A stretch of 64,000 bases of DNA, taken from the IMG/VR virus record IMGVR_UViG_3300045988_172415; one strand, written 5' to 3'. The DNA is from a virus. The notes beneath the pieces are model-generated. The model ran no database searches and had not been told where the DNA came from. It saw nothing but the letters and a program-made list of their open reading frames with translations. The position numbers were made by a program, and so were the translations under genes. Position 1 is the first letter of the stretch. Each line of letters opens with the position of its first letter. This document shows positions 6,948 to 50,305 of this stretch, in pieces.

Positions 6948-7204
6948 AGTTCCGCTCCGAATTCATTTCCGCTTGTCATGCACTGTCTTCAAGTCTACCT
7001 TCCGTCCGAGGTTTCCTATATCGGCTTCGGGGTTTTCTACATGCATCCACCGGCGGTGTCGGCTTCTCTGTTTTTCTTTTTCCGGAACTTTTCTTTTTCT
7101 CTCTTCCCTCGAAAACATTCAGACCTGTCTAAACGTCAACGTTGTTGAAACGAAAAACAGCATTGAGGATAATCGTTGCTCAGGGTTCACCCTGTCTGAA
7201 CGTA

Positions 7205-7325
7205 GAATCAAAAAATGGTTTTATTCTAATTTTTTGATTTTTTGCTTCTTTTTGAAAAACTTGTTTTTTGAAAAAGAAGGGAATACAAGGGATATTAATA
7301 TCTTTTGTAATCTTTTGTATACCTT
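7205..7325. promoter_or_regulatory. AT-rich tract, candidate DNA-unwinding element of the replication origin
   Basis: This is the only strongly AT-rich block in the window ('ttttattctaattttttgattttttgcttctttttgaaaaac...'). It lies directly upstream of the iterons and repA. Confidence 0.45.
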
Positions 7326-7374
7326 TTGCAGGTGTCGAAATCCCTTATGGGAGTAGGCGTTTCGGGTTGAAAGC

Positions 7375-7462
7375 GTGTCGAAAGTGCCCACTTTCCGTGT
7401 CGAAAGTGCCCACTTTCCGTGTCGAAAGTGCCCACTTTCCGTGTCGAAAGTGCCCACTTTTT
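7375..7462 (+). repeat. iterons: four tandem 22-bp direct repeats 'GTGTCGAAAGTGCCCACTTTCC'
   Basis: Four head-to-tail copies. Three are perfect and the fourth diverges at its 3' end. A partial copy 'GTGTCGAAATCCC' sits at 7332. All are upstream of repA. Confidence 0.75.
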
Positions 7463-7700
7463 TGTCTATGTGTGTCAGAAGTTCCAACTTTTGGTTCCGC
7501 TTTCTCACGTTCTGTGGCACTTCCTCATGCCCCGTTCGACCTTTTTCGCAAGCAGTTCGAAGCTACAAAAAGACGGAGGGTAGAAAAGAATCTATAAGGG
7601 GTAGGTAGTGACGTATACTGTTCTGAGAAAAGAAAATCCCCGCACTGTTGGAACCAGCCGGGGAATGGCAACCACCTAACACTGAAGGAGTCGTGGTCAC

Positions 7701-8570
7701 ATGACCAATCATAGCAAAGACCTCTACAAGTCGAATACATACAACTACACGCCGTCGGTTATGTCTAAGCTGAGTTTCCTGCCGCAGTCGAAACCGGAAT
7801 CTCAGTCCATGAGAAAAATTAACGGAAACTCGTCAATCACAGTCTCGGCCTCCACCGGAGAATGGGCATACGGAGCAGCCCCCAGAATGTTCCTCATCCA
7901 CATCCGTTCTCTCATCAAGAACAGTAGCGACTGTGTGGACGCAGAGAATCATACCGTCTACTTGGACGACACCTATCGTTCATTCTGCAAGAGCACTGGA
8001 ATCCACTATTCAGGGTCCAGCAAGGAGACGGTAATGAACATGGTCAGGAATCTAGCGACAACCTCCATCGTCCTTGAAAACTGGTCCACTGGCGGATTCA
8101 CAGCCCACTCTTTCTTCGTTGCCAACATAGTGTCACTCAACTACGACGATGACGGGGCGAAGAAGTCTTACATAAAGTTCTCCCCCGAGATGTGGGCACT
8201 GCTGACGGAGAACTGCGTTCCTCTCAACCCATCCATCGTTCGCCAGCTTCGCAACGATGCCCTCGCGTTGGACGTATACCAGTGGCTCGCGTTCCGTGCC
8301 CATGCCATGCGCCATGAGACGCGCGTGACATGGGAAGCCCTGTTGATGCAGTTCAAGTATGACGGGTATCCGATGCGTGAATTCAGACGCAAGTTCAAGA
8401 GAGCGTTGGAGAAGATTCAGCTCGCATGGCCGGAATTGAAAGTCGAAGTCACGGAAACCGGTGTCATAGTCCGTCCCAGTCTCCCTTCCATCCAGTCGGC
8501 TAACGATGATGCCGACACGGACGCGGGCGTGGCAGACGATGAAGAGCCGATGAACCCGTTCGTATCCTAA
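7701..8570 (+). CDS. repA: plasmid replication initiator protein (theta-type RepA family)
   Basis: 289-aa ORF downstream of the iterons and AT-rich region. Architecture is Rep-like with an acidic C-terminal tail. Promoter TATACT at 7614 and RBS GAAGGAG. Confidence 0.65.
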   Translation: MTNHSKDLYKSNTYNYTPSVMSKLSFLPQSKPESQSMRKINGNSSITVSASTGEWAYGAAPRMFLIHIRSLIKNSSDCVDAENHTVYLDDTYRSFCKSTGIHYSGSSKETVMNMVRNLATTSIVLENWSTGGFTAHSFFVANIVSLNYDDDGAKKSYIKFSPEMWALLTENCVPLNPSIVRQLRNDALALDVYQWLAFRAHAMRHETRVTWEALLMQFKYDGYPMREFRRKFKRALEKIQLAWPELKVEVTETGVIVRPSLPSIQSANDDADTDAGVADDEEPMNPFVS

Positions 8571-9164: not shown

Positions 9165-9827
9165 TTATTCTTCCACCAGATTGATTTCAGACAGATAGTC
9201 GATGAGTTCCTGCACGACGCTGGAATATTCCTTGTTGTCGATTTCGGTTGTGCCGTACATGTTCTTGACGGCTTCACGTTCCGTGATGACGGTTTCGAAC
9301 CGTGCGATGCCTTCCTCATCCAGTTCGCTGATGCTGTTCCGGGCGAGTTTCGTTCTCGGCTTCACGCGTGTCAACAGGACGATGCCGTTGCGTGCCGCCG
9401 CGTATGTGCGTCCCGCGTGGGTCAAATCGGATACGGATGGCTGGCATGGGATTATCACCACGTCGCCCGCGTTTATCGCCGCCTGTACCACTCCCGCGTC
9501 GGACGGTGGGGTGTCGATGATGACCCAGCCTGAATATTTTTCGCGGATGAGTTCCGGATTGTTCAATACGGCTTCGTTGGTTTGCACGACGGGGAAGCCG
9601 AGCGTGTATGGTTTCGCGTCCGGATTGTCCTGTCTGCGTCTGCGGTTTTCCTGTTCGACGTACATTTCCCACATGGTCGCGCCGCCCGTGTTGTCGGAGT
9701 CCAAGACTGTGACTTGTTCCCCGCGTTTGTGCAATAGTTCGGCCAATGCCATTGATGTGGTTGTTTTTCCTGAACCGCCTTTGATGATTGCGACGGTGAT
9801 GATGACCGTATGGTTTTTGACTCTCAT
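9165..9827 (-). CDS. parA: ParA-family partition ATPase
   Basis: Deviant Walker A 'KGGSGKTT' (IITVAIIKGGSGKTTTS). Start chosen at the internal Met (MRVKNHTV) with RBS AAAAAGGAAACC; the track ORF extends to 9950. Confidence 0.8.
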   Translation of the reverse strand: MRVKNHTVIITVAIIKGGSGKTTTSMALAELLHKRGEQVTVLDSDNTGGATMWEMYVEQENRRRRQDNPDAKPYTLGFPVVQTNEAVLNNPELIREKYSGWVIIDTPPSDAGVVQAAINAGDVVIIPCQPSVSDLTHAGRTYAAARNGIVLLTRVKPRTKLARNSISELDEEGIARFETVITEREAVKNMYGTTEIDNKEYSSVVQELIDYLSEINLVEE

Positions 9828-10046
9828 GTTCTGGTTTCCTTTTTCTGCTTCCGGTGTGGACGGAATCATGGTGGGGGTATGTTTTTTGTTTCGATGATAA
9901 CAACGGCGAAAAGTCGGCACGCCGAACTGGAAAACCGTTCGGAGAAACATTCCAGTAAAACAATGGAACGGCGTACAGGTTTACAGGCGGAACAGAAAAA
10001 CAGAAAGCCGCGTCCGCGATGAAACGGATACGGCTTTCTTTCGTTT

Positions 10047-15546: not shown

Positions 15547-18207
15547 CTAGTCATCATCGTCCATGTCACCATTGCGATAACCGTTATCGAAATCGTTCAC
15601 ATGGACAAGGAATGTCGGCTGCAACTGTTCTTGGGTTCGAGTGCGAACAGCCGCCGCATAACGCGGAAGATTCATGACCGCACCTGAACGCCAACCATCC
15701 TCCCCGTCATTGTTCGTCAGACGCTTCGCCGTCATATCGGCGATACGCGGAATCGTCGTATTGTATGTGATGAACGTCGAATAGCCGATGAACGAATCCA
15801 ACATCGCGTCGGACAACTGGGTCGGATACTGGGTGGCGAACACGAGAAGAAGACCGAACGAACGGCCCTGCTCGCGCAATGCGGGCATGATGCCATCATT
15901 GCCGTTAGCCAACAGGCTCAACTCGTCGCACACGAGCATCGTCCACTTGCCCGCCTTGTCCCAATCCTTGCAATGCGCGAACACCGTATTCCAGAAACGG
16001 TACATGAGCCAGCCGCCGAGAATCTTATCCATACGTTCCGGCAACGAATAACCATTATGTGGTGCGAGCACAATGTGATAATCGCCAGCATGGTCGAGAA
16101 TGTTCGTCCAAGTCACCTTGCCGCGGCGTGCGGTGAACATGTGTTCGATGGGAAGGAACTGGTTCACCTTGTTCAACGAAGCGTTCGTCTTCGTAAGAAT
16201 GTCACGGTCGGAACGAACCGTATGACCAGCCGCATCCGGACGGCCATACAATTGTTCGGCCGCACGAGCCGCATACGTCATCTCCTCGAACATGTAGCCA
16301 CTCTTCAACTCCATGCTCAACGCGCGGCACACATGGCCCAACGCTTTCGCGGAACCGGCCTGACCGTCGGAACCGCATAATGCGACGACGGCCCATCCGA
16401 TTGGACTCAACTGCATTCGCAACTGTTCCGCACCCGGATACGATTGTTCGAGCTGGTGGCAACGTTTCACAATCTCGCTTTCCCAATCCTTGTTCGCGGA
16501 TTCGGGATTATGCTTGCGCTCCTCCTGCACGTAACGGTCAACCGCCACGCCGATGGTCAACGCTTGGGTGATGATGTTCTGCGAGTCGTTCAGAATATCA
16601 CCGTCATCGAACGAGTAGCGCATGGTTTTCGCCACGCTCGCCGCAGTCTCCATCGCATTGTTCCCGTCCTTCATGCCAAGCATGTCCAAACATACACTGT
16701 TCGGGTCTGCCAAGTAGACGACTCGCTGCGGACTGGTGAAACCGTGACGTTTGCGATAACGTTCCAACACGTTGACGCCGGTATCATCCTTCATCCAAAA
16801 ATGGATGATACGGGAGTCGCGCCCCCAGATTTTCGGACTGGTGGTTTCTCGTGCGCTGATTGCCCACTGGCTGATGCCATGAGTGAGAACTGTCTTACCG
16901 GAACCGGCTTCACCGTTGATGGCGATACCGCCGAACAATTGCGACGGGTCGAGATAACAGTTACGTCCCGTATCGTCTTTCCCGAGGAAGATGCCATCAT
17001 GAGACAATACTTCCGGAACCGGATGCAACTCCTGCTTCATCGCCACTCCCTGAGTGACCGGAGTGAACACGGAACTCACGATAATCGGGGAAAGAATCAA
17101 CGTGGTACGTTGCGCACCATAAGCCGACACACGCTCCTTATGAGTTCGCACGCCAAGACGGGTCTGATTATCGGACTCGTTCGCGCCACGGTCGTTCGCA
17201 ATCGCATAATATCTGCGTGGCGTTTGGAAAATGTCATCCCACAACGTCCAATTCTTCCAACGGATGAACGCGAATACAAGAAGAGGAACGAAAAGAATCG
17301 GAATGAATGTCGGGAGCGGAAGCAACCCCAACAGCAGGTAAAGCATGAGAGCCACCGCGCCACCGGCAATCTGAGGTCGCGGAATGTAAACGAACGGAAT
17401 GCACGACAACAGCATGAGGAACAGGAACACGACCAACGTCACCGCAAGCAGTGGAAGCGCGATTCCGAAACCCCAAGCGGAATGGAACAATGGGAACACG
17501 CCATCCATCACGTATCCTCTTGCAAGACCGCACACACTCCAAATCACGGACAACACTTCCAACAGCATGCTGACGAACAGCAAACCGAATTTCGGACGGC
17601 TCGCATGACTGGACATGTTGGATATGAGCGGACAGATGATTTGACCAATCTTCTGCGCAAGCTGTCGGTTACGCGAAGCCTGACGGCAACCGAAACTCAC
17701 ACGGGCGCACATCGTGTTGGTCGAAGCGAGTTCGCTTGAATCCTCCACCGCATTGTATTCGTCGCTAATCCAATTACGAATGCGAATCTGCTCGAAGTAT
17801 CCCTGATTGCGAAGCGTGACGCTCACATAACTGTCCGGCGGCATGACCTTCTCGATGCTTGTACGAACGCCGGAATAGTTCGTCCGCATCTTCTCCATGT
17901 TGCTTTTCGAGTTCAACCGGGCGCGAAATGGTACAAGAGGATGCGCCGCACTGTTCACGCCATCCGGCAACACCGGCCCGTCGTCGTCTTCGACCAGTCT
18001 CGCGTCAAAACCAGCCAACTGTCCGGCGTTGACGATTCCCTCGCCGTCACCGTAAATATATTCCTTGACCGGCTCCTCGCCCTTCTTGATGAGGAGAAGG
18101 GTGCAACCATCCAGTTCGGCTGGAATGCTCTCCACTTTAGAACGTTGCTCGTCCGGGTCTAACTGTTGCAACGTTCTGGTTATCTGATACCAGTTCGGAT
18201 TACCCAT
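15547..18207 (-). CDS. type IV secretion coupling ATPase (VirD4/TraG/TraD-like)
   Basis: 886 aa with an N-terminal polytopic TM domain. Walker A 'INGEAGSGKTVL' and Walker B-like 'MLVCDELSLLA' (the DEL..L form typical of coupling proteins rather than the VirB4 DEAW). Confidence 0.5.
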   Translation of the reverse strand: MGNPNWYQITRTLQQLDPDEQRSKVESIPAELDGCTLLLIKKGEEPVKEYIYGDGEGIVNAGQLAGFDARLVEDDDGPVLPDGVNSAAHPLVPFRARLNSKSNMEKMRTNYSGVRTSIEKVMPPDSYVSVTLRNQGYFEQIRIRNWISDEYNAVEDSSELASTNTMCARVSFGCRQASRNRQLAQKIGQIICPLISNMSSHASRPKFGLLFVSMLLEVLSVIWSVCGLARGYVMDGVFPLFHSAWGFGIALPLLAVTLVVFLFLMLLSCIPFVYIPRPQIAGGAVALMLYLLLGLLPLPTFIPILFVPLLVFAFIRWKNWTLWDDIFQTPRRYYAIANDRGANESDNQTRLGVRTHKERVSAYGAQRTTLILSPIIVSSVFTPVTQGVAMKQELHPVPEVLSHDGIFLGKDDTGRNCYLDPSQLFGGIAINGEAGSGKTVLTHGISQWAISARETTSPKIWGRDSRIIHFWMKDDTGVNVLERYRKRHGFTSPQRVVYLADPNSVCLDMLGMKDGNNAMETAASVAKTMRYSFDDGDILNDSQNIITQALTIGVAVDRYVQEERKHNPESANKDWESEIVKRCHQLEQSYPGAEQLRMQLSPIGWAVVALCGSDGQAGSAKALGHVCRALSMELKSGYMFEEMTYAARAAEQLYGRPDAAGHTVRSDRDILTKTNASLNKVNQFLPIEHMFTARRGKVTWTNILDHAGDYHIVLAPHNGYSLPERMDKILGGWLMYRFWNTVFAHCKDWDKAGKWTMLVCDELSLLANGNDGIMPALREQGRSFGLLLVFATQYPTQLSDAMLDSFIGYSTFITYNTTIPRIADMTAKRLTNNDGEDGWRSGAVMNLPRYAAAVRTRTQEQLQPTFLVHVNDFDNGYRNGDMDDDD

Positions 18208-18233: not shown

Positions 18234-18743
18234 TTAATCATTCGTGCTCTGCTGATACAACTGCGCGTATGGGAAACCTTCCGGCTTCTGGAAAGTGGAA
18301 AGCTTCTCACGTAACGACAATTGGAGAAGCCATGTAGTCATACGGACGGTTTTCTCCTTCGACTCCAAAGCCCAACCCAATGTCACGTAACCGTCGTTCA
18401 CGCTCGAATCATCGTTGATGGTTTCACGCATGACGCGGATTGTTTTGTTCGCAATCCGCCGGGAAGTGTTGAACATTATCGAATCCAATTGCCAGAGTCG
18501 TATCTTCCGTAATGCGGGAACACGTTGCATGTTCGCCATCAGAAACGGAATGACCAAATGTCTACGTCCCGTCTCACATAATGTCTGAACCTGTTGCAAA
18601 GCCCGCGCACGTTCCAATCTTGCTACATCCAACGCGTCCTGCGTCTGTTGGAATGATTCCTCAGTGGAGACCATCGCAATCCTTTCCAATGAAACCGTAG
18701 AAACCGCCACGGTACGCTTCCGGCATTGTCCAACCGGAAACAT
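18234..18743 (-). CDS. hypothetical protein (169 aa)
   Basis: ORF whose start overlaps the upstream gene. Confidence 0.3.
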   Translation of the reverse strand: MFPVGQCRKRTVAVSTVSLERIAMVSTEESFQQTQDALDVARLERARALQQVQTLCETGRRHLVIPFLMANMQRVPALRKIRLWQLDSIMFNTSRRIANKTIRVMRETINDDSSVNDGYVTLGWALESKEKTVRMTTWLLQLSLREKLSTFQKPEGFPYAQLYQQSTND

Positions 18744-19857
18744 CCCAACCCCAATCCTTCTTTATGATGTCTCGCGTCACGTCCCAACCCCATTCGCTGA
18801 CTTTGCGAACGTCACGAACCTGCGGAGTATATTGCGCCCACTCGTCGGAGAAAATGTTGCGTCGTGTTCCACTCATATCCGTATAGTCACCGAACCTGTC
18901 GGTCGGCATCCCATGCTCGAACCATTCGTCCCAGACCGCGATTCCCATTCGTTGCGACACGGTAGGATTGCCCACGACCATTTCCGTCATGCCTTGCGTG
19001 CGTTGTACCACCGCGTTGAACGATTCGTAACCTTCGTTTGCCTTCGGTATCTGCAACCATACGCAGATGAGTCCGCGACGCTTCATCGGAGAATAGGCGA
19101 GCATCTTAGCCCAGTTCTGCATCTTCTTATCCAATTCGCTGTTGGACGTTTGGATTTCGATACCCGCCAACACATTGTTCCGGCACAACGTCACCACGTC
19201 GGTCGCGCAAGCCTTGCCGACCTTCGACTCGGCAACAGCCTGTGGGTCAACGCTACGGAATTTTCCCCAACCATCACCGGATGAGAATTTCACGCGTGAA
19301 TCGCGTGCCAACATCAATCCCGCGTGCGCCGCATAAGTGTTATGCCGAACATGGAAACGATTCCCCGCGTAATAGGAAACCGCCATCGTCTCACGCATCC
19401 ACTTTTCCATCCCGTACAATTTCATCGCACGGTTGATAAGACGTGGACTGTTCGACGGTGAAAGCCAAACATGATTCACGGTCTGACCGTACAATCGTTC
19501 CGCCTGACTGAAACCGACGTTGATGATTCCCAAACGGTTCATCGCACCATACAGGTTCGGTTCGTCACGTTCGAAAGCGGGAGCGCCTTTGATGGAAAGT
19601 CCCGCACGTAGTTGGTCAACCGTGCATGTCTTCCAAGTGAACAATGCGCCGAGGATACTCGAAACGAGTTCGCTGTTCGCTTTCACCATTGTCTCCGCGA
19701 ACAGTTTGTTCGCAACGAACCACGGGTGGGTCTGCGCGAACAATCCGGGATGCTCCATCTCGAACATGTCGTTGCCTTTATACCAGTCGGCAATGCTTCC
19801 GGTCTTCCAAAGATTCTCGTCGTTCGGGTCGAAAAGAAAACGGTCATCGAATGTCAC
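18661..19857 (-). CDS. hypothetical protein (398 aa, Trp-rich C-terminus), conjugation-operon member
   Basis: ORF. I could not recognise a relaxase or primase motif with confidence. Confidence 0.4.
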   Translation of the reverse strand: MTFDDRFLFDPNDENLWKTGSIADWYKGNDMFEMEHPGLFAQTHPWFVANKLFAETMVKANSELVSSILGALFTWKTCTVDQLRAGLSIKGAPAFERDEPNLYGAMNRLGIINVGFSQAERLYGQTVNHVWLSPSNSPRLINRAMKLYGMEKWMRETMAVSYYAGNRFHVRHNTYAAHAGLMLARDSRVKFSSGDGWGKFRSVDPQAVAESKVGKACATDVVTLCRNNVLAGIEIQTSNSELDKKMQNWAKMLAYSPMKRRGLICVWLQIPKANEGYESFNAVVQRTQGMTEMVVGNPTVSQRMGIAVWDEWFEHGMPTDRFGDYTDMSGTRRNIFSDEWAQYTPQVRDVRKVSEWGWDVTRDIIKKDWGWDVSGWTMPEAYRGGFYGFIGKDCDGLH

Positions 19858-21068
19858 TTACGCCCACGACCTTTCTTTCCTTCACTGTTCTTAGCGTTCG
19901 GATTGAATCTTTCCGGATTGAAACCACGGTCGGGCAAAGCCCAGTTAAGAATGTTCTCCCTAGCAAAAGCAAGACCGGGGTCATCCCATCTGACATCACC
20001 GTTGGCGATATGGTTGCTTGCCTCGACCGTCTGATATTCGGTTCCGAGAAACGTTCCGTATCTCGTATAGTCGAGTCGTCTGTAACCTTGCAGTCCGACC
20101 GGAACGGTGTCCTTGATTCCGATGAGTTCCTTCGGAAGATGATGCTCAGCCAAGGCCGTCAGCAGATTCAACGCGTCTATCTGCGTCTGCCTTCCAGCCT
20201 TGATGATAACCAGACAAGGGTCTCCCGATTGAATGTATGGAAGCAGTAAACCGTTGGCGATATTCTCCCTATCATCCAAATCGTCCGCGCTGATTCGGTC
20301 AAGGTCGAGCACGACGAAATCCCACAGTCGGCGTGCCGCTTGGATGTACTGACGGTATATCTGCCAGTCCACTCCGACGCCTGCTGGAGGTGCGAAACAG
20401 ATGTCGTATGGAACCCCAAGGTCACGTCCTCGATTGGCTCCGACCTGCACCTGCATGCCCGGTCGCCAGTCGGCTATCGTATGCAATGGCTTGTCCTGTC
20501 TCGGGTCGAAAAAACTACGTTGACTGGACTGTCTGATGTTGCCGTCGATGAGCAGAACACGCAATCCGGCTTGCGACGCACGGTCTGCCAACTGTCGGCT
20601 GGACGTGGTCTTCCCCACTCCTCCGGTGTTGGATGTGATGGGTAGGAGAACCGCAGTTTCCTTCACTTTGTTTTGGAGGATATCGACTACGAGACGCTTG
20701 TCCGCAAGCTGGATTCCCCAATAAGTCCGTGCGAAATCAGCCACGCTCATGCGTAACATCTGTTCGCTCATGCCTATGGCTCCGACCGGTATCTGACCGG
20801 TGTTGCACCAGTAGACCATGTATCCGGCGTTGGCTATCGGAAGCCAGTTTCCAGCCCTGTCAGTGAAGATGATTCCCTTGAACCCGGAGGGCACCGGATG
20901 TCTTACCAGATAGTCGGCCTGTGCTTGAATATTGTCTGCGGCGGGCACCTGCCAACGCATGTTTCCAGCTCTCGTAAGGGCCTTTTTGATGGTTGTGAGA
21001 AGCCCTCCGGAGCCGATTATCAGGGAAATCGTTCGTTTTTCCAATAAGACCGCCTCCTGATGGGTCAT
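19854..21068 (-). CDS. ParA/MinD-superfamily P-loop ATPase with a ~140-aa N-terminal extension
   Basis: Walker A 'TSNTGGVGKTTSS' in the middle of a 404-aa protein. First large gene after the T+G-rich leader tract. Confidence 0.5.
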   Translation of the reverse strand: MTHQEAVLLEKRTISLIIGSGGLLTTIKKALTRAGNMRWQVPAADNIQAQADYLVRHPVPSGFKGIIFTDRAGNWLPIANAGYMVYWCNTGQIPVGAIGMSEQMLRMSVADFARTYWGIQLADKRLVVDILQNKVKETAVLLPITSNTGGVGKTTSSRQLADRASQAGLRVLLIDGNIRQSSQRSFFDPRQDKPLHTIADWRPGMQVQVGANRGRDLGVPYDICFAPPAGVGVDWQIYRQYIQAARRLWDFVVLDLDRISADDLDDRENIANGLLLPYIQSGDPCLVIIKAGRQTQIDALNLLTALAEHHLPKELIGIKDTVPVGLQGYRRLDYTRYGTFLGTEYQTVEASNHIANGDVRWDDPGLAFARENILNWALPDRGFNPERFNPNAKNSEGKKGRGRK

Positions 21069-21109
21069 GTTCCGTTGTTTTCATCGGAACGTTTACGGTT
21101 TTGTCCGAG

Positions 21110-21700
21110 TTCTGGCATTTATAGTTTTTTGATATTTAGTTTTTTGTTGGTTTTGCTGTTGCTTTTTTCATTGCATTGGCTGTTCCTGTATTGATGTTAC
21201 CTTGTTTTGATTGTCGTTGACCTTGTTAGTGAGACTATTGACCTTTTTGTTGTTTTTGTTGTTGTAGTGGCTGTTGGTTGTTGTTTGTGCTGGTGCTGGT
21301 GCTTGACCTGTTGCCTTGTGGTGCTGTTGCTTGGCTTTTCTTGTTTCTTGGGGTGTTTGGTGCTGTTGTTCTTCTGTTTTGTATGCCATATGGGTTGATG
21401 TGCTGTTCCTTTGTGGATGGTTGCGTTGCTTCTGTTGTTTTCATACGTTGTATTCCCGATTTAGGGGTAGGTGTTTCTTCTTTTATTGTCCTGTTCTTCT
21501 GTTGCTTCTATTTGATTAAGATTGCTGCTCTTATATTCTCCTTTTCTTCCTTTTGGTTTTTCTTTTCTTTCTGATTTTCTTGGTTATTCTTTTTTGATGT
21601 GATGGTGTTTGGTTTCTTTTTCTGATTTTTTGGTGGGTAGTGCTTCCTTTCTTTTAGTCTTTTTGATTTTTGGTTTTTCTCTTTTTTTTGAGTCTGCTAT
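21110..21700 (+). other. ~600-bp extreme T+G-rich, strand-asymmetric tract (A/C-rich on the minus strand), probably non-coding
   Basis: In 60-nt blocks I tallied, T+G is roughly 72–88% and A roughly 2–15%. Both strands give only low-complexity 'ORFs' (Cys/Leu/Phe-rich on the plus strand, Gln/Asn/Lys/Thr-rich on the minus strand). Confidence 0.5.
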
Positions 21701-21977
21701 TCATGTTGACCTACCGGCGTGGACTGGATGGTTTTCATGTTTTTTCTGATAATGGTCGGGTGTTGTTCCTTTTTTCATATTTGTTGGGGACTCTTTTTGG
21801 TTCCGCTTTTCTGTTGGAACTACCGGCGCGGGCGGCGCGGGGAATTGTTTTTCCCGTTTTCCCCGTTTAGGGATGCTGTCGGGCGTTACACTCGTGAATT
21901 GAAAATACAGAACACCTCGTTCCGACTGTTAACAGCCTGTACGACCGGAGTGTTCGCTGGATATGACGAAAGAAGGT

Positions 21978-22685
21978 ATGATGCCAGACTTCACCAATTG
22001 GGGATTCAACAACAACCAGCAGTCGGAGCAGGACAATGGTTACGGTTCCGACAATTATGCTGAACCGGAGCAGTCTTCTGTCGAGGAGTCGCAGACGGAA
22101 TCCGATTCTCTTAATCAGGAGAGTTCGGAGCCTGTCTCTGACGTGTCCGCACCGGCTGATGGTGAGGATGTGAACGTGGACGCTGAGTCCACTGAAACCG
22201 AAGACAAGCCGAGGGGGAAGGGTAAGGGCCGTTCCAATCGCAAACCGCGTGAGAAGACCATGCCGCACATCGAGGAACAGTTCGGCAAGAAGCTGATTCC
22301 TCTTGTCAAATCGTTGGATGACGAGCGTGTGGTTTCTCTCGCCAAGGCGTTGACTGATACGAAGAAGAGCACTCCGGAAGCAGTGCTGGACGCATTGACT
22401 GAGCCGAAGAACCAACGTCGAATCTCTGAGTTCGCGTCCGCGTTGGAAGGGTTGGCTACAGCCGAGCCGGGCATGATTGCCGCAGAGGTGACGTTGGTGT
22501 TCGCGCAGGGCAAGGATATGACCAACCTGCTGTTCTCCGTGCTGAACGCGGTCGCGCCGGAGAAGAATTTCGGACGTCCGGTTGACGACCAGTCTCCTGC
22601 CGGAATGCGTAAGAACCTGAGCAAGATTGTCGATAATTGGGGTGACGGTGTTGACCTTTCCGTTATCGATGAGCTGAAAATCTGA
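21978..22685 (+). CDS. hypothetical protein with an acidic low-complexity N-terminus
   Basis: Start chosen at 21978 with RBS GAAAGAAGG; the track ORF starts at 21963. Confidence 0.4.
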   Translation: MMPDFTNWGFNNNQQSEQDNGYGSDNYAEPEQSSVEESQTESDSLNQESSEPVSDVSAPADGEDVNVDAESTETEDKPRGKGKGRSNRKPREKTMPHIEEQFGKKLIPLVKSLDDERVVSLAKALTDTKKSTPEAVLDALTEPKNQRRISEFASALEGLATAEPGMIAAEVTLVFAQGKDMTNLLFSVLNAVAPEKNFGRPVDDQSPAGMRKNLSKIVDNWGDGVDLSVIDELKI

Positions 22686-29562: not shown

Positions 29563-29940
29563 ATGGTCGAAAAACCGAAAAAACCGAACACATCCCCGGC
29601 GAAGCTTCTGACCGCAGACGAGGCTTTGGCCTTGGGAAGACGACCGGAAGTCGTCAACGTCTTGAAAAACAAGCACGGATGGTGGGTAATCTTCACCACC
29701 CAATTCCAAGACGAAGTGACCCTCCGATATCTGCAAGGGGAACGTCCCTCGGAGATATTCCGCAGTCACAATCTCGGGCCGGAAGTCCTCGGATACAAGC
29801 GCATAGAACGTTGCGTATACCGGTGGGTCAACCATCCCAGCAAATCCCGTGTCAAACGTTGGCAAGCGGAACACCGCCTGTATGAGACGTTGAACAAGAA
29901 TCAGACCAACACCGGCAAGAAGGAGAACGGCGACAAGTGA
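29563..29940 (+). CDS. small basic protein, possible HTH DNA-binding (transposase-OrfA/excisionase-like)
   Basis: 125 aa; the segment 'VTLRYLQGERPSEIFRSHNLGPEVLGYKRIERCVYRW' resembles an HTH. Confidence 0.25.
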   Translation: MVEKPKKPNTSPAKLLTADEALALGRRPEVVNVLKNKHGWWVIFTTQFQDEVTLRYLQGERPSEIFRSHNLGPEVLGYKRIERCVYRWVNHPSKSRVKRWQAEHRLYETLNKNQTNTGKKENGDK

Positions 29941-31277
29941 GCGTCCCCACACCAATCCACAAGGATATGGCCGAACAAGTATTGTTGGGGGCCATGCTTC
30001 AAGACTCGGAAACGTTGGACAAGGTCATCAGCCAACTTTCCGAAGAGGACTTCTACCAGCCGACCAACCAGACCATCTTTCATAATATAAAGGAACTGGC
30101 CGCAGACAATAACCGTGTGGACGCGCAAATGCTGTCCTCGCACATGATGGACAACGGACAGTTGGAACAGGTCGGCGGTATCGACTATATCGCCCAGCTT
30201 GTCGGCTCCGCGCCCACGTCGAACAACAGTGACTATTTCATCAAGCAGATTCGTGACGCGGCCATCCTCCGCCACATCAACGTGGTCGGACAACAGTTGC
30301 AGCAGATGAGCAACGTGTCCAACGCGTCAGCCGAAGATGTGCTCAGCAAGTCGTTGGAGACCGCGTTCTCGTTGGAGGATTCGAGTCGTTCCGAAGACGA
30401 CGAGTTGAAGACCGCATACCGTCTGTCCGACGAAATGCTCCAACAGTTGGATGAAATGTCACAGAATCCGAACGAGTTCGGAACACCCACCGGCTTCCGT
30501 GACATCGACGCGTTGACACACGGATTGCAAGCCGGACAAATGGTCATAGTCGCGGGACGTCCGGGCATGGGCAAGAGTACTCTCGGCATGGATTTCGCGC
30601 GTAACGCCGCACTGCACAAGGGTCTGCCGACTGTGATTTTCAGTCTGGAAATGGGCGGTCACGAACTCATGCAACGCATGTTCGCAGCCGAAACAGGCAT
30701 CCGTCTCGCATCGTTCCAACATCCCGAGAATCTGAACTCGAATGATTGGAACAAACTCAACGCGCTCTGCCATCAGGTCGAGAAGGCACCATTGTGGGTT
30801 GATGATTCCGCCATCATCAACATGAGCACCATCCGTGCGAAATGCCGTGCTCTCAGCCGCAAGGTCAACGGGTTGAAGCTTATCGTCATCGACTACCTGC
30901 AACTCATGTCCTCCGGTAAAACCGTCGAGAACCGTCAGCAGGAAGTGTCGAACTTCTCCCGCCAATGCAAAATGCTCGCCAAGGAACTGCAATGTCCCGT
31001 GGTCGTGCTGTCCCAGTTGAACCGTAATGCGGAACAGCGTGCCGACAAGAAGCCGGAACTGTCCGACCTGCGAGAGTCCGGTTCCATCGAACAGGACGCC
31101 GACATGGTGTTTCTCGTGCATCGTCCCGAATACTACGACCGTGAGGAACGTCCGGGCGAAGCCGACGTGATTCTCGCCAAACATCGCAACGGGCCTACCG
31201 AAACGTTCAACCTTGCGTTCATGGGCGAATGCTCCAAATTCGCGGACATGGCCGCAGGTTTCGAAAACGAGTTCTGA
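29937..31277 (+). CDS. dnaB: replicative DNA helicase DnaB
   Basis: N-terminal DnaB domain (MAEQVLLGAMLQD...). Walker A 'GRPGMGKST', Walker B 'LIVIDYLQLM', the 'VVVLSQLNR' motif, and 'SGSIEQDADMV' near the C-terminus. Confidence 0.85.
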   Translation: MSVPTPIHKDMAEQVLLGAMLQDSETLDKVISQLSEEDFYQPTNQTIFHNIKELAADNNRVDAQMLSSHMMDNGQLEQVGGIDYIAQLVGSAPTSNNSDYFIKQIRDAAILRHINVVGQQLQQMSNVSNASAEDVLSKSLETAFSLEDSSRSEDDELKTAYRLSDEMLQQLDEMSQNPNEFGTPTGFRDIDALTHGLQAGQMVIVAGRPGMGKSTLGMDFARNAALHKGLPTVIFSLEMGGHELMQRMFAAETGIRLASFQHPENLNSNDWNKLNALCHQVEKAPLWVDDSAIINMSTIRAKCRALSRKVNGLKLIVIDYLQLMSSGKTVENRQQEVSNFSRQCKMLAKELQCPVVVLSQLNRNAEQRADKKPELSDLRESGSIEQDADMVFLVHRPEYYDREERPGEADVILAKHRNGPTETFNLAFMGECSKFADMAAGFENEF

Positions 31278-31328: not shown

Positions 31329-32726
31329 ATGCCAACAACATTGATAATCGTCGCGGCAGTGGCGATACTCATCATCCTGCTCGCAACCGCAAGCTACAAG
31401 GTCTGCCCCGCCGACCGAGTCATGGTCATCACCGGGCCGGGTGGACGACGCTTCGTTTCCGGCGGAAGCGCGTTCATCATACCCTTCATCATGCGCGTGG
31501 ACTGGCTCTCCCTCGGAGCGGTGCAGTCGCTCCTGAGAACCGACACGCCGATTCCGACGAAGGACGCAATCCTCATCGACGTGAACGCCGTCGCGAACTT
31601 CCAGATAGCATCCGAGACCATGACCGTGGACGAGAACGGTAAACAGGTGAAGGCGTTGGAGAACGCCGCCAAGAACTATCTGAACCAGTCCAAGGAGCGC
31701 ATGGAGAAGGACGTGACGCAGGTGCTTTTGGGCAAGCTGCGCGAGGTCATCGGCAAGACCGAGTTGAAGGAGCTCATGGAGAACAGGGACACGTTCGCTG
31801 CGACCGTGGCCGAATCCGCCCGCGTGGACATGGAACGGCTTGGCCTTCAATTGACCACGTTCAACATTCAAGACTTCACCGACCGTCAGAACGTCATCGC
31901 CAACATGGGCGCTGAAATGGCCGCCGAAATCAGCCGGAATGCGAAGCTCGCGTCCATCAACGCGGAACAGGATGTGGCCGTCCGTCAGAACCAGCTCGAC
32001 CTGAAACGAGCCGAACTCCAATCCATCTCCGACAAGGCGCAGGCCGAGGCTGACGCGGTGAAGGGCATCACCGCCGCCGAACAGTCCAAGACCCTCAAGG
32101 TCAAGGAGCAGGAGGCGGAAATCGCCGCCGCCGAAAAGAAGGCAGTCCTCGAACAGAAGAACGCCGAAATCGAAGAGCAAAAACTGAACGCGACCATCCG
32201 CAAGAAGGCCGACGCCGACAGATACGCCGCCGAACAGCAGGCCGACGCGCAAGTGTACACGACCCGCAAGCATGCGGATGCGGAACTGTATCTACGCCAG
32301 CAGGAGGCTCAGGCCACCCAATCCACCGCCGACGCGGACGCGCACGCGACCGAGGTCAAAGGCAAGGCTGAAGGTTCCGCCGCACAGGCCAAGGGCGTGG
32401 GCGAGGCGGAGGCAATCCGCGCTCAGGGCGAGGCGTACAACTCGATGAACAACACGTACATCCTCGCCCAACAGTACATTCAGATTCTCCCCGACATGGT
32501 TCGAGCCGCCGCCGAACCGCTCACCAAGGTTGACCACATCACCATGTATGGCGACGGAAACAGCACGAAGCTCGTGGGCGACACGGTGAACAGTGTGAGC
32601 CAGTTGAGTGAGGGATTGTCTCAATCCTTGGGCATCGATTTGAAAGCCTTGCTGAACAGTATGGTGGCCGGTCATGCCGCCGGTTCCGCACTAGGTGGGA
32701 AAGGTTCCGAACAGTCCGGAAACTAA
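31329..32726 (+). CDS. flotillin-like SPFH/band-7 protein
   Basis: N-terminal TM followed by an SPFH domain. A long coiled-coil region has Ala/Glu/Gln/Lys repeats (KAQAEADAVK..., AEIEEQKLNA...). Confidence 0.7.
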   Translation: MPTTLIIVAAVAILIILLATASYKVCPADRVMVITGPGGRRFVSGGSAFIIPFIMRVDWLSLGAVQSLLRTDTPIPTKDAILIDVNAVANFQIASETMTVDENGKQVKALENAAKNYLNQSKERMEKDVTQVLLGKLREVIGKTELKELMENRDTFAATVAESARVDMERLGLQLTTFNIQDFTDRQNVIANMGAEMAAEISRNAKLASINAEQDVAVRQNQLDLKRAELQSISDKAQAEADAVKGITAAEQSKTLKVKEQEAEIAAAEKKAVLEQKNAEIEEQKLNATIRKKADADRYAAEQQADAQVYTTRKHADAELYLRQQEAQATQSTADADAHATEVKGKAEGSAAQAKGVGEAEAIRAQGEAYNSMNNTYILAQQYIQILPDMVRAAAEPLTKVDHITMYGDGNSTKLVGDTVNSVSQLSEGLSQSLGIDLKALLNSMVAGHAAGSALGGKGSEQSGN

Positions 32727-32905: not shown

Positions 32906-34636
32906 GTGAAAACCAAAAACCTGTTGAAGGCAACGGTCGCCACGCTTGTGGCCGGTGCCATGGGTTTGGCTGGAGTTGGCTCCGCCATGGCGGCTGATAC
33001 TCGTGTTGACGCATCCAAGCTTGGTGAGGCTGCTCGTCAGACGTTGACCGTCGCTGCTAATGGTGATATTAGCAATCGCACGTTGAAGGCTGTGCCGCTC
33101 GCCTACTATTCGTATGCGCAGACTGATGGTACTAATATTACCGGCTTTGACCTGATTGACGCGGGCAAGGCTTCTGCCATTGCTGACGCACTGACTAAAG
33201 CCCATATTGACACCCAGTCCAAGAAAGACCAGACTGCCGGATACGACTATAATGCGTCCAATCCGATGGTGTGGGTCGTGCAGAATCTCCTTGATTCCGA
33301 GAACAGCCCGTGGGCTGGCAAGCTTCGTGACTTCATCGACCAGTTGAAGAACGAGGCCGCCGTCACCGGCGACAAGGGCACCGCGTTCGCCAAGGGCGCC
33401 GACGCCAAGCATATGACCGCATCAGTCCGTCCGGGCGTGTATGCGGTCGTGGACACCACCACGGCCGGTCAGGCGTCCATCGTCATGTTCAACGGCACCG
33501 GCATCGACGGCAAGACCACGTTGAAGAACGGCGACAAGACCTACACGCTGGGCACCGTGGACTATAAGGTGCATGACGCCGCAGTCAGGAAGGCTATCAC
33601 CTCTGTTGAGAATGGTGATGTGGATGAGAAAATCGGTGAGGACCATGAGGATGAGGGGGCTCGCCAAGCAGGGAAGAAATATTATGCGGTAGCCAAGACC
33701 TCCATCGGCAAGAAGGTCTCTTTCACGATGGGCGGCGCGGTGCCTGTTTGGACTGGCTACGACCATTATTATTATGCGCTCAACGATACGTATTCGGATG
33801 GTCTGACTTTCAACCCGGATAGTGTGAATGTCACTGTCGGTGGTAAGGCTTTGACTGCTGGCAAGGATTACAAGGTGACGACCGAGGCGGGCAAGTTCCA
33901 TATCCTGTTCGCCCCGACCGCTGATGGTTCTTCCGACATCATCGCCGCCAAGACCACGTTCCCGGTCGATGCGGAAGTGCTTGTCACTTATGACATGACC
34001 GTGAACAAGAACGCCCACGTGGACGGTGTTGACACCAACACGAGCGAGGTCGAATACTCCCATAATCCGAACACCGTCACCGACCATGAGAAGACTCCGG
34101 GCGACACCAACTACGTGTACGTCGGCAAGTTCACTCTGACCAAGACCGATACGAACAATGCTCCGCTCGCGGGTGCCGTGTTCAACATCAAGGATGCCAA
34201 GAGCAATATCGTCAAGTTCGTCAAGGTGGGTGATAACGAGTATCGTGTTGCCGACTCGACTGAGGCCGCTACCGCAAGCGCCGACATCACCACCACCGAT
34301 AAGAACAATGGCGTCATCACCTTGAAGGGCTTGTACGGTGCCTACACGGTGACTGAAACCAAGAGTCCGTTCGGCGGCAGCATTCTGCCGGAGTTCACTC
34401 TGACCGTTGGCGTGGCCCAGTCCAAAGACCATAACACCAGCACTTCGTCCCTCACCAAGTTCAAGGATGATGCCAACCATCTGGCCTCCAAGACCAGTGA
34501 CGATGGAGTGACCGTCATCAACGCCCGCAACATCGCTGACATGCCGAAGACCGGTGCGGTCTGGCTGTCCATCTTCGGCGTGATGACCGTCCTGTTGGCT
34601 GGCGCTTCCGCCCTGCTGCTTCGTCGCAAGGCGTGA
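32906..34636 (+). CDS. sortase-dependent pilus major subunit (LPXTG-like cell-wall anchor, MPKTG variant)
   Basis: GTG start with an RBS. Signal peptide, CnaB-type pilin E-box 'YGAYTVTETKSPFGG', and a C-terminal 'MPKTG' followed by a hydrophobic helix and 'RRKA'. Confidence 0.65.
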   Translation: MKTKNLLKATVATLVAGAMGLAGVGSAMAADTRVDASKLGEAARQTLTVAANGDISNRTLKAVPLAYYSYAQTDGTNITGFDLIDAGKASAIADALTKAHIDTQSKKDQTAGYDYNASNPMVWVVQNLLDSENSPWAGKLRDFIDQLKNEAAVTGDKGTAFAKGADAKHMTASVRPGVYAVVDTTTAGQASIVMFNGTGIDGKTTLKNGDKTYTLGTVDYKVHDAAVRKAITSVENGDVDEKIGEDHEDEGARQAGKKYYAVAKTSIGKKVSFTMGGAVPVWTGYDHYYYALNDTYSDGLTFNPDSVNVTVGGKALTAGKDYKVTTEAGKFHILFAPTADGSSDIIAAKTTFPVDAEVLVTYDMTVNKNAHVDGVDTNTSEVEYSHNPNTVTDHEKTPGDTNYVYVGKFTLTKTDTNNAPLAGAVFNIKDAKSNIVKFVKVGDNEYRVADSTEAATASADITTTDKNNGVITLKGLYGAYTVTETKSPFGGSILPEFTLTVGVAQSKDHNTSTSSLTKFKDDANHLASKTSDDGVTVINARNIADMPKTGAVWLSIFGVMTVLLAGASALLLRRKA

Positions 34637-34715
34637 GATTGGAGATTGGAATACTGCCGTATGAGAAAACTTTTCTGACCGTTTGACGGTTGGAAAAGCA
34701 TGAAATGTTCCGCTT

Positions 34716-34753
34716 GGCGTGTCGGGAACCCAAATATCGACACGCCACTTTTT
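34716..34753 (+). terminator. rho-independent terminator between the pilin and sortase genes
   Basis: Stem GGCGTGTCG...CGACACGCC followed by ACTTTTT. Confidence 0.5.
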
Positions 34754-34770
34754 AGATTCTTTATAACCGC

Positions 34771-35676
34771 ATGGGAGGGGTTTTGGGAAAACATACGGCG
34801 AAACCGAAAGGCTTGGGAAATCGAGCCATAGCGGGACTTCTCTGCCTAATCCTATCCGCCCTGTCCGGAACCATCCCATTCATTCTCATGATTTCGAACA
34901 GCAGCCAATCCAACCGGTTGACCGACTCCCACGCGCAAGCCGTGGAAAACACTGACGTGAAACGAATCGCCCAAGAGTATGCGGACGCGCAAGCCTACAA
35001 TCAACGCCTATACGAGGAAGGCCAGCCCATTCTTGGTGAGGCGGAAGACCCTTGGACGGGCGTCAACAAGTCCGAAACGGACAACACGTATCGGAAGCAA
35101 CTATCCACCCCCAAGGATGGGGTCATGGCTACCATCAAATATCCACGCTTGGGCATCAACCTGCCCATCCGGCATGGCACGTCGCAAAATGTGTTGGCCG
35201 CTGGAGCTGGACACTTATACGGTTCCAGTCTCCCCGTCGGTGGCAAGAACACGCATACTGTCATATCCGCTCACACGGGTTTGGCCGACCAGCTCATGTT
35301 CGACAAGCTGCGAGGCTTCGGCAGTGAAGCCAAAAAGGGAGACGTCTTCTATTTGATAACCGCCGGACATATGCTCGCTTACAAGGTCACGGATATTAGT
35401 GTGGTAGACCCATCCGACTTTTCTAAACTGAAAATCGTCGCCGGAAAAGACCTCTCCACACTATTGACCTGCACGCCATACGGCATCAACAACAAGCGAC
35501 TCTTGGTGACCGGCACGCGCGCCAGCATGCCACACCCCGCGCCCAAACCCGAAAACGCGCCGAAAGACCACACGAACCAATGGCTCATGCTGTACGTCGG
35601 CGGCTTCTGGCTTGCGGTAATCATCATCACCATTCTCATCATCCGTAGAAAAAACCACGCAAAGAAGGAACACTAA
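34771..35676 (+). CDS. class C (pilus-specific) sortase
   Basis: N-terminal TM, catalytic 'HTGL' His, 'TLLTCTPYG' Cys motif, and the C-terminal TM anchor typical of class C sortases. Confidence 0.8.
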   Translation: MGGVLGKHTAKPKGLGNRAIAGLLCLILSALSGTIPFILMISNSSQSNRLTDSHAQAVENTDVKRIAQEYADAQAYNQRLYEEGQPILGEAEDPWTGVNKSETDNTYRKQLSTPKDGVMATIKYPRLGINLPIRHGTSQNVLAAGAGHLYGSSLPVGGKNTHTVISAHTGLADQLMFDKLRGFGSEAKKGDVFYLITAGHMLAYKVTDISVVDPSDFSKLKIVAGKDLSTLLTCTPYGINNKRLLVTGTRASMPHPAPKPENAPKDHTNQWLMLYVGGFWLAVIIITILIIRRKNHAKKEH

Positions 35677-50215: not shown

Positions 50216-50255
50216 GTGTGGACGTGTCTTGTTTTGTATATTTATCCAAACGTGC

Positions 50256-50279
50256 TATACTGGAAATGTCCACATAAAA
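50256..50279 (+). promoter_or_regulatory. conserved promoter/operator module copy (variant)
   Basis: 'TATACTGGAAATGTCCACATAAAA'. Confidence 0.5.
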
Positions 50280-50305
50280 CAGGCGGAGCCAACCAAGGAG
50301 AACAA

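Follow-up and report, generated by a model that had tools for sequence, protein, structure and literature searches.

What keeps several hundred nucleotides of a plasmid dominated by T and G on one strand? The question arises from positions 21110-21700 of the 64,000-nucleotide stretch of DNA analyzed here (the window), where the plus strand holds A 8.3%, C 13.4%, G 23.2% and T 55.2%. An earlier note on this DNA had characterized the tract by 60-nt blocks, and its figures were reproduced (A 1.7-13%, T+G 72-85%). Skew computed across the window, a check which that note had proposed, makes the tract the single outlier of the 64 kb. T+G reaches its maximum over 600-nt windows at 21091 (0.785, z = 4.8), and AT skew over 200-nt windows falls as low as -0.87, where the standard deviation among windows is 0.24. 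The skew therefore stood but its limits did not, as it reaches to about 21830, and 21100-21830 (T 53% and A 9% on the plus strand) is the sole such outlier. The A/C-rich stretches at 50246-51099, considered as similar tracts, are ordinary coding sequence. The GC content of the window is 52.7%, and not about 58% as had been stated for the replicon.

The replicon and the adjacent operon

The replicon is a Bifidobacterium megaplasmid of the pMP7017 family. The exact ParA-like protein encoded next to the tract was found in 393 blocks of a public assembly collection, and the 47 homologs recovered all lie on Bifidobacterium megaplasmid-type contigs. Megablast with the locus as query matched nothing among the plasmids of PLSDB or the phages of INPHARED, and pMP7017-type plasmids were recovered by tblastn only, not by DNA-level search. 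A profile scan of genome contigs with the ParA-like alignment was dominated by generic P-loop patterns, its sole return being an irrelevant Klebsiella locus. A Pseudarthrobacter plasmid match was rejected as a distant relative, having the P-loop domain alone in common and carrying no comparable tract. In pMP7017 itself (190 kb), the tract is the only non-coding region that is strongly AT-skewed. The pMP7017 transcriptome paper (with its supplement) and the replication papers contain no transcription start site, coverage, oriT or mention for this region.

Three genes of the minus-strand operon bear on the reading of the tract:

19854..21044, minus strand: first operon gene, a ParA/MinD-type P-loop ATPase (Pfam CbiA/AAA_31 and NCBIfam ParA/SopA-like matches, all weak)
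18661..19857, minus strand: 398-aa protein with a predicted winged-helix plus PD-(D/E)XK nuclease fold
15547..18207, minus strand: 886-aa ATPase resembling coupling proteins of type IV secretion systems (T4SS)

The ParA-like protein has an N-terminal extension of about 135 aa. A 57%-identical homolog of the 886-aa protein is named a T4SS DNA-transfer protein by NCBI, and the AF2 model of the latter (pLDDT 80.7) matches Cag-beta, TrwB (TM 0.6 over target) and HerA in Foldseek. Together, the fold and the name of the homolog make the transfer operon proposed in the earlier note plausible. The operon also has a weak match to a VirB6-like membrane protein, while pMP7017 carries FtsK/SpoIIIE-type genes elsewhere, which were counted against the transfer-region reading. 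MOBC relaxases have a PD-(D/E)XK fold with an N-terminal wHTH, and the direct repeats that they bind lie 70-120 bp from nic (PMC12857230). The 398-aa protein has the same predicted wHTH plus PD-(D/E)XK architecture as TraX, the MOBC relaxase of pAD1, and we infer that it is a candidate MOBC-like relaxase, one that gave no sequence-level match to any relaxase family.

Layout of the divergent intergenic region

The tract does lie between the divergent gene at 21978 and the minus-strand operon, as first placed, although the region had to be redrawn to about 21045-21977. The ParA-like gene probably starts at the TTG at 21044 on the minus strand, preceded by an AGGAGG Shine-Dalgarno (SD) sequence at 21053-21058, and the start of the divergent plus-strand gene (234/235 aa) was moved to the ATG at 21978 or 21981. 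Synteny around the gap is identical in all relatives. The interval is not the uniform tract of about 600 bp that had been described, but a hypervariable core between two conserved blocks:

21045..21977, no strand: whole divergent intergenic region (ORF map, with starts re-assigned from cross-lineage alignment and SD sequences)
21069-21248: conserved proximal promoter/5'-UTR block
21249..21690, minus strand: hypervariable low-complexity core, from alignment (A 53%, C 24%, G 14%, T 8%)
21263..21362, minus strand: A/C-rich sub-segment, G-poor with T at 0-4% (50-nt bin composition)
21513..21712, minus strand: A/G-rich sub-segment, purine-rich and C-poor (50-nt bin composition)
about 21691-21900: conserved distal block

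On the minus strand the purine-rich sub-segment precedes the A/C-rich one in all lineages, and the order of sub-elements in general is identical throughout.

The proximal block, nearest the operon, holds the following elements:

21194..21199, minus strand: TAACAT, candidate -10 of the operon promoter, the only position-conserved sense TAnnnT
21238-21245, 21217-21224 and 21196-21203, minus strand: three CAAGGT(C/A)A direct repeats with 21-bp spacing (alignment)
21120..21125, plus strand: TATAGT, possible antisense -10 directed toward the T-rich tract, corresponding to the conserved sense motif CTATAAAT read in reverse
21069..21090, minus strand: GTTCCG-N10-CGGAAC inverted repeat, placed 25 nt before the TTG in what is probably the 5' UTR

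At the position of the candidate operon -10, three lineages (L005, L006 and L007) have TATCAT, and pMP7017 and L033 have TAATAT. This hexamer precedes the annotated start of the ParA-like gene by 126-167 nt and lies downstream of the skewed core; sequence conservation sets in about 50 nt further upstream. Sense-strand TAnnnT hexamers number 1-6 per gap, and in L006 the proximal one is the sole example in the whole gap; no distal sense TAnnnT is conserved in position across lineages. Because the only position-conserved -10-like hexamer in the sense direction is downstream of the core, most of the tract lies upstream of the probable operon promoter, and the leader is likely, from the sequence, to be at most about 145 nt (21045-21187). 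Both the operon and the divergent promoter candidates are -10-like hexamers with poor -35 boxes, and a scan of the tract for sigma-70 consensus promoters and terminators returned nothing usable. The third CAAGGT(C/A)A repeat overlaps the candidate -10. These repeats are invariant in the window clade, with related AGGTAA/AGGTAT repeats in L005 and L006. The TTCCG..CGGAA arms of the inverted repeat are retained in pMP7017, L033 and L005, and other palindromes take that place in L006 and L007. RNAalifold found no consensus structure in the 5' UTR.

The distal block, nearest the divergent gene, holds a second set of elements:

21794..21831, minus strand: copy A of an element of about 38 nt, CGCGCCGGTRG..TCC-N-AGCGGAAC, followed by an A run
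21800-21820: inverted repeat GTTCC-N11-GGAAC within copy A
21685..21722, minus strand: copy B of the same element, 109 nt from copy A (repeat D2, 74% identity)
21823..21842, minus strand: GC-rich 9-mer direct repeats (CCCCGCGCCGCCCGCGCCGG), a GC-rich block at the same position in every lineage
21887..21892, plus strand: TACACT, candidate -10 of the divergent gene promoter

Among 12 copies and lineages the motifs CGCCGGT and AGCGGA hardly vary, and they occur, together with the inverted repeat, in all lineages, the repeat being degenerate in some. The inverted repeat and GC-rich motif may resemble the nick regions of MOBQ type. The GC-rich repeat element is unique in the window and its 15-mer is unique in the 190-kb pMP7017, where the skewed non-coding region is likewise single, as expected of an oriT acting as a single cis site. 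All lineages have a TAnnnT 50-82 nt upstream of the divergent gene (TACACT, TAGATT, TATGCT, TAGAGT or TACAGT), at which its promoter may be placed.

Strand composition and sequence of the core among relatives

The comparison covered 48 distinct syntenic gaps of 518-1014 bp, from relatives with 56-100% identity in the ParA-like protein. The operon-sense strand is A-rich and T-poor in all 48, and the core on that strand has A at 42-54% and T at 4-11% in every lineage; in L008, whose ParA-like protein is 47% identical, the skew is weaker. A search of related plasmids for a syntenic tract, which the earlier note had suggested, thus found the same strand skew in all related replicons. In every lineage the AT content of the tract exceeds that of its own plasmid by 10-17 points, though it is just about 50% in the high-GC lineages.

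Core sequences are unalignable between lineages, indicating that many substitutions per site have accumulated, whereas the composition and fold energy of the core hold in 9 lineages. Within the window clade, core sequences diverge by 12-17% in substitutions, whereas the conserved ends differ by 1.7-3.7% and the flanking genes, at their 4-fold sites, by 4-9%; polarized core substitutions were too few to read the direction of mutation. Indels in the core span 1-113 nt, with many changes in homopolymer length and short motifs. In L019, a 113-column alignment gap (about 109 nt) joins two CGCCGGTAG repeats, and what is deleted is precisely the interval separating copies A and B of the distal element of about 38 nt. 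The core is without constraint on primary sequence or exact length, yet in every lineage it stays strand-segregated and AT-enriched in comparison with the plasmid.

No ORF on either strand is conserved among relatives, the positions, lengths and start codons all varying, and 34 of 40 indel runs between near-identical plasmids (flanking genes 98-99% identical) are not multiples of three. These two observations uphold the view that the tract is non-coding and remove both a decayed and an extant gene from consideration. Nor is the tract a simple microsatellite expansion, as the earlier note had likewise judged: TRF gives arrays of only 17-43 nt (e.g., TTG x12.7 and 9-mers x2), direct-repeat families have 2-3 copies each, and head-to-tail copies of one unit do not make up the tract. 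For the core, an iteron-like k-mer common to the lineages was rejected because enrichment across them is limited to low complexity of the GAA/AAG type; as to an iteron or centromere array, the proximal block has its three CAAGGT(C/A)A repeats. Curved A-tract DNA was rejected as well, AA-dinucleotide power at 10-11.5 bp exceeding that of shuffles in none of 10 lineages. Between 20500 and 22500 no Rfam family matched at E <= 1, nor did any reach its gathering score anywhere in the window, and searches for tRNA and tmRNA found none.

Measured over 300 or 600 bp, duplex stability is the lowest of the window at the tract (z about 4.4-4.5). No other single strand in the 64 kb folds as poorly as the minus strand of the tract, at -2 to -10 kcal/mol per 150 nt in comparison to -42 +/- 9. 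Across lineages, minimum free energies are -4 to -17 kcal/mol per 150 nt in the tract and -43 to -57 in adjacent genes, so that the description of a strand poor in secondary structure was correct in the window and in 9 lineages. RNA of the plus strand is likewise weakly structured. TAnnnT on both strands is 2-7 times rarer than in strand-symmetrized sequence of the same GC content. TA steps are depleted (observed/expected 0.4-0.9), and since these are the least stable steps, their depletion is not expected from selection for melting alone.

Candidate roles of the tract

The reading tentatively placed first, with confidence that falls short of even, is that the tract is a DNA-level spacer or unwinding zone in a transfer-control/oriT region and not an mRNA leader. 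The core would then be the non-coding middle of a divergent control region of about 930 bp belonging to the putative DNA-transfer operon, acting as DNA. Its two-letter local alphabets may give the duplex that is easiest to open in the replicon, with separated strands that would both be free of hairpins and would offer few -10-like hexamers and few start codons. It could thus serve as a spacer, or as a helicase/relaxosome loading zone, of a transfer-initiation region comprising oriT and promoters. Two conserved cis blocks bracket it, the distal one with the GC-rich repeat and inverted repeat beside the candidate divergent promoter and the proximal one with its direct repeats, -10-like hexamer and probable 5' UTR of about 145 nt. 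The candidate recognition/nick element is, on the plus strand, the conserved inverted repeat with (T/C)ACCGGCGCGG after it, and the candidate processing machinery, namely the predicted wHTH plus PD-(D/E)XK protein and the coupling-protein-like ATPase, is encoded just downstream. An oriT-associated region, ranked highest among the roles listed in the earlier note, is a live option. A fixed A-rich strand is not required by a pure DNA-level role, and common descent plus slippage could account for it.

This arrangement has parallels in known systems. In pIP501 the promoter region of the tra operon contains the oriT, which has inverted repeats (PMC4981023). Like that oriT (in Ptra) and oriT2 of pAD1, the region is a unique intergenic cis region upstream of an operon, here a putative one, for DNA processing and coupling (PMC4981023; PMC12857230). 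The pIP501 and pAD1 origins also have an inverted repeat by a short conserved core, direct repeats tens of bp away and overlap with a promoter, for each of which the region has a candidate counterpart. Unlike the known oriTs, which span about 40-500 bp, the region described here from its sequence has a strand-segregated hypervariable tract of 400-700 bp between conserved parts, and we know of no oriT described with such an A/T tract. DNA unwinding elements, and AT-rich regions destabilized by stress at origins and divergent promoters, offer a second parallel, as the tract is the least stable duplex of the replicon, enriched in AT, placed between divergent units and beside specific protein-binding repeats. 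It is far longer than an unwinding element, however, is depleted in TA steps and has far more extreme strand segregation. It is also not beside a characterized oriV, as the oriV of pMP7017, which consists of iterons and an AT-rich region (PMC8313286), is at about 118 kb and the tract at about 53 kb.

A bolder proposal, possible but rather unlikely, is that the core is a composition-coded cis element, in which selection would act on two-letter strands and not on sequence. The alphabets, A/G then A/C on one strand and T/C then T/G on the other, would mean that the opened stretch exposes several hundred nucleotides as two hairpin-free single strands. These may load a helicase or relaxosome, or may mark the identity of the transferred strand, in conjunction with an unrecognized relaxase of the PD-(D/E)XK type.

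It is unlikely that the core is instead a functionless, slippage-prone spacer that inherited its skew from an A-rich ancestor, with only the conserved ends, and perhaps a minimum distance between them, being of consequence. Such a spacer would fit a core that changes at least as fast as neutral sequence, with many homopolymer and short-motif indels, that contains only short microsatellite-like pieces and shares across lineages only GAA/AAG-type low complexity, and that tolerates the L019 deletion and the range of gap lengths. Neutral decay, however, should drive A to equal T and the GC content to that of the plasmid, whereas the A and T proportions on the same strand and the order of segments have persisted through many substitutions. 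Furthermore, no other non-coding region of pMP7017 behaves alike.

Quite improbable is a U/G-rich transcript of the plus strand from TATAGT (21120-21125), acting by interference and as antisense RNA and possibly forming a long leader of the divergent gene. The hexamer lies within a block nearly invariant in the clade, and a plus-strand TAnnnT occurs at the aligned position in 6/7 independent lineages, with TAGATT in pMP7017, TAGTTT in L033, TAGAGT in L006 and TATAGT in L005, and none in L007. Transcription-associated deamination is expected to give a T+G-rich non-template strand, which fits the direction observed, and RNA of the plus strand is also weakly structured. Against these points, a T-rich strand will often contain TAnnnT by chance (the gap of the window has 13), reading of the window and pMP7017 gave no acceptable -35 upstream, and the motif could equally be a 5'-UTR element of the sense strand. 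Searches for a terminator or conserved RNA structure found neither. The possible face-to-face -10 elements about 70 nt apart, where a Gram-positive transfer operon begins, recall prgQ/prgX of pCF10. Unlike in pCF10, however, both promoters here are putative, there is no homology, and neither antisense RNA nor terminators were detected.

Still more doubtful is the leader of about 600 nt, A/C-rich and unstructured, that the earlier note had assigned to the operon transcript. Such a leader might, for instance, serve for Rho loading or attenuation, or for ribosome standby. Like rut sites and unstructured leaders, the sense strand has C > G in all lineages and extraordinarily little structure, and its start codons are depleted 4-10-fold (0-14 per kb in the tract, 38-54 per kb in adjacent genes). 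The distal end in the window clade also has a weak ATGAAA-N18-CATTAT match and a TATTTT hexamer. This distal candidate is deleted in L019, though, and no distal sense -10-like hexamer is conserved, L006 having none upstream of the proximal one. Conservation sets in shortly before the proximal hexamer, as it would at a promoter, and SD-like motifs are not enriched. With its only conserved sense hexamer downstream of the core, the region thus fails to support a leader of this length; in contrast to rut, the probable promoter is downstream of most of the tract and the dominant base is A, not C.

There is little likelihood that the tract is a silencer platform, coated by a nucleoid-associated or plasmid protein that would repress both promoters, possibly with looping between 21069-21090 and 21800-21820. 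Conjugation operons are commonly repressed by default, the AT enrichment over the plasmid in every lineage would suit such a protein, and two GTTCC(G)-N10/11-(C)GGAAC palindromes flank the tract in the window clade. That pair is lost in other lineages, however, A-tracts show no helical phasing, the AT content of the high-GC lineages is modest for this purpose, and the conserved feature is strand segregation, which silencers that bind duplex DNA do not need. Finally, it is scarcely credible that the tract is a gene, whether for a Lys/Asn/Gln/Thr-rich protein of low complexity read from the minus strand or for small hydrophobic peptides read from the plus strand, as the ORFs of 55, 73 and 91 aa given by gene callers (e.g., B7017_RS00305 on the plus strand in the RefSeq record of pMP7017) are expected from T-poor DNA with few stop codons, differ among near-identical plasmids, are broken by the frame-shifting indels and, in the case of the ORF in the L008 / B. 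callitrichidarum tract, have no protein-level similarity to other tracts.

The tract itself is a clean natural case of non-coding DNA in which strand composition is conserved and sequence is not. Alignment-based conservation screens miss elements that are conserved in strand composition alone. Megaplasmids of the pMP7017 type are conjugative by experiment and typed as 'non-mobilizable' by standard tools, and we know of neither an oriT nor a relaxase for them. Reportedly, about 10% of microbiome samples from the human gut contain them (PMC10832533). The best candidate for their transfer-control/oriT locus is this intergenic region, and the adjacent predicted wHTH plus PD-(D/E)XK protein and coupling-protein-like ATPase are the best candidates for the machinery that would process it.

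Setting and physical properties of the tract

The tract occupies the gap separating a divergent gene from the ParA/MinD-type gene at the head of the long minus-strand operon. Cross-lineage alignment re-placed the start of the ParA-like gene to TTG 21044, probably its true start, with the SD sequence AGGAGG 8 nt upstream, and that of the divergent gene to ATG 21978/21981, which yields a conserved MPDF N-terminus. By the longest-ORF rule, both flanking genes appear to have been mis-started (start regions 21963-21981 and 21044-21068), and the re-placed starts leave an intergenic region of about 21045-21977.

On the plus strand, 21110-21700 is composed of A 8.3%, C 13.4%, G 23.2% and T 55.2%, with 60-nt blocks at A 1.7-13% and T+G 72-85%, in agreement with an earlier note that described it as T+G-rich and A-poor; the ~58% GC background given there is too high, as GC in the window is 52.7%. 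The tract is the sole compositional outlier of the 64-kb window, with a maximum 600-nt T+G fraction of 0.785 (z = 4.8, window-wide), and it stands out in the skew scan proposed in the same note, in which 200-nt AT skew falls to -0.87 against an sd of 0.24. Duplex stability is the lowest in the window at 300- and 600-bp scales, and no other single strand folds nearly as poorly as the minus strand of the tract, at -2 to -10 kcal/mol per 150 nt against -42 +/- 9. Locally two-letter alphabets make the duplex easy to open and hairpins impossible on either strand, lower the number of -10-like hexamers 2-7 fold below that of a GC-matched, strand-symmetric sequence, and leave start codons nearly absent. 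The other A/C-rich stretches of the window, at 50246-51099, are ordinary coding sequence. Duplex stability is second lowest at 7057-7660 (GC about 0.34-0.42), directly 5' of a RepA_C-domain gene (7701-8570) and close to a ParA gene (9165-9950); it may serve the second replicon as origin or promoter region.

The minus-strand operon is plausibly a transfer operon. Its 886-aa ATPase (15547-18207, minus strand) is without a Pfam match; the NCBI title for a homolog is T4SS conjugative DNA-transfer protein, and the fold of its AF2 model (pLDDT 80.7) matches the T4SS coupling proteins TrwB and Cag-beta as well as HerA translocases. A 1335-aa operon protein weakly matches the CD3337/EF1877 mobilome membrane family. 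The 398-aa putative wHTH-nuclease, with a predicted winged helix and PD-(D/E)XK fold, has no sequence-family match and no significant Foldseek match. Combined wHTH and PD-(D/E)XK domains are also the reported architecture of TraX, the MOBC relaxase of pAD1 (PMC12857230); this resemblance is a lead rather than a claim of membership. Other genes of the window, on the plus strand, are:

29937-31277, plus strand, DnaB helicase
31329-32726, plus strand, flotillin/SPFH protein
32906-41054, plus strand, sortase-dependent pilus cluster that includes a 1792-aa surface protein with RCC1/SdrD repeats
42977-44206, plus strand, RVT_1 reverse transcriptase

GTTCC-N6-16-GGAAC palindromes occur seven times in the window (1.3 expected), several of them just 5' of start codons or intergenic:

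1599, palindrome
8993, palindrome
15388, palindrome before a 114-aa gene
21069, palindrome
21800, palindrome
34707, palindrome between pilin and sortase genes
44917, palindrome

Conservation of strand composition rather than sequence

ParA-like homologs are confined to contigs of the Bifidobacterium megaplasmid type, about 200-220 kb long, with carriers including B. sp. SO1, B. callitrichidarum and pMP7017 of B. breve, which is experimentally conjugative (PMC10832533). The assembly collection lists the exact ParA-like protein of the window in 393 of its blocks. The syntenic gap was taken from 53 loci, representing 48 distinct sequences. In every lineage with a ParA-like protein 56-100% identical to that of the window, the gap measures 518-1014 bp and its operon-sense strand contains A 40-50% and T 7-15% (A 42-54% and T 4-11% in the core); the search for a syntenic tract suggested earlier thus recovered the same strand skew in all of these lineages. 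In B. callitrichidarum, the 47% relative, the locus contains an additional gene and the skew is weaker.

Core sequences are unalignable between lineages. All lineages share the order of divergent promoter, GC-rich repeat, ~38-nt element, purine-rich segment, A/C-rich segment and conserved proximal block, and the ~38-nt element carries an inverted repeat in which CGCCGGT...AGCGGA is nearly invariant. Neither an iteron-like motif common to the tracts, nor helically phased A-tracts, nor a match to Rfam families was found. Across the full 190 kb of pMP7017, no non-coding region other than the tract is strongly AT-skewed, and the GC-rich 15-mer occurs once; the characterised oriV lies far from the tract (PMC8313286).

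Within the window clade (ParA-like protein at least 98% identical), gap length is 821-938 bp and both ends are well conserved (substitutions 0-3.7%), while core substitutions reach 12-17%, compared to 4-9% at 4-fold sites in the genes on either side. The core contains 40 distinct indel runs, 34 of which are not multiples of three. Locus L019 (contig SKEL01000009.1) has lost 109 nt exactly between the two direct copies of the ~38-nt CGCCGGTAG... element, as recombination there, either repeat-mediated or site-specific, could bring about. A microsatellite expansion, named in the earlier note as an outcome that would count against it, was tested and rejected. That such a core is inert, slippage-prone DNA is unlikely, given a strand composition that recurs across lineages.

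Probable operon promoter and possible transcription of the tract

The sense strand is poor in T, and TAnnnT hexamers are very rare on it, at 1-6 in each gap. A single one keeps its position, in every lineage but the 47% relative. It lies 126-167 nt 5' of the annotated start and is spelled TAACAT in the window (21199-21194); three lineages have TATCAT there, and pMP7017 and its sister clade have TAATAT. In L006, another syntenic locus, the gap contains no further sense-strand TAnnnT. Conserved sequence starts ~50 nt upstream of this hexamer, opening at three CAAGGT(C/A)A repeats with 21-bp spacing, and runs to the start codon, a pattern suggestive, at the sequence level, of a promoter and ~145-nt 5' UTR. 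Inside this putative 5'-UTR block, a conserved plus-strand hexamer (TATAGT, 21120-21125) could act as an antisense promoter directed towards the tract, though a plus-strand antisense transcript or a convergent-promoter switch is a rather doubtful account of the tract. No distal sense promoter is conserved across lineages, from which we infer that the operon promoter sits downstream of most of the skewed tract, and that this part is not operon leader. The ~600-nt A/C-rich leader originally proposed is accordingly improbable.

A plasmid-specific motif reported to overlap promoters in pMP7017 (TATACTG..ATGTCCACA) has one copy in the window (50256-50274, plus strand), upstream of a small gene starting at 50307, and another at about 3801-3838 of L008, the B. 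callitrichidarum locus.

Candidate functions

A role as a silencer platform is also given a low probability, slightly below that of the leader. Since near-identical plasmids have ORFs, on both strands, that differ in placement, length and initiation codon, the tract is non-coding, as had been proposed, and a coding function is ruled out for practical purposes. For the same reason, the RefSeq CDS B7017_RS00305 (hypothetical protein), on the T-rich strand inside the tract (pMP7017 53034-53309; L009 4351-4626, minus in locus), is probably spurious.

What is maintained in the tract is its strand composition, not its sequence; the tract is unique per replicon and sits between conserved cis blocks where a probable transfer operon begins. 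The leading, still tentative, reading is that of a DNA-level spacer or unwinding-loading zone within a transfer-control/oriT region. The candidate recognition/nick site would then be the distal inverted-repeat element, and the processing machinery the putative wHTH-nuclease and coupling-protein-like ATPase encoded downstream. This spacer or unwinding role is consistent with the placement of oriT regions in tra promoters, as in pIP501 (PMC4981023), and with the binding of TraX to direct repeats at a distance from nic (PMC12857230). The tract, undescribed in the pMP7017 transcriptome and replication papers and in the Bifidobacterium megaplasmid/oriT literature searched, is best classed as a putative intergenic transfer-control/oriT-type region, with an unusual composition-conserved, sequence-free core. 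Its composition-only conservation is robust and directly testable, and the neighbouring genes suggest how megaplasmids typed as 'non-mobilizable' yet conjugative process their DNA.
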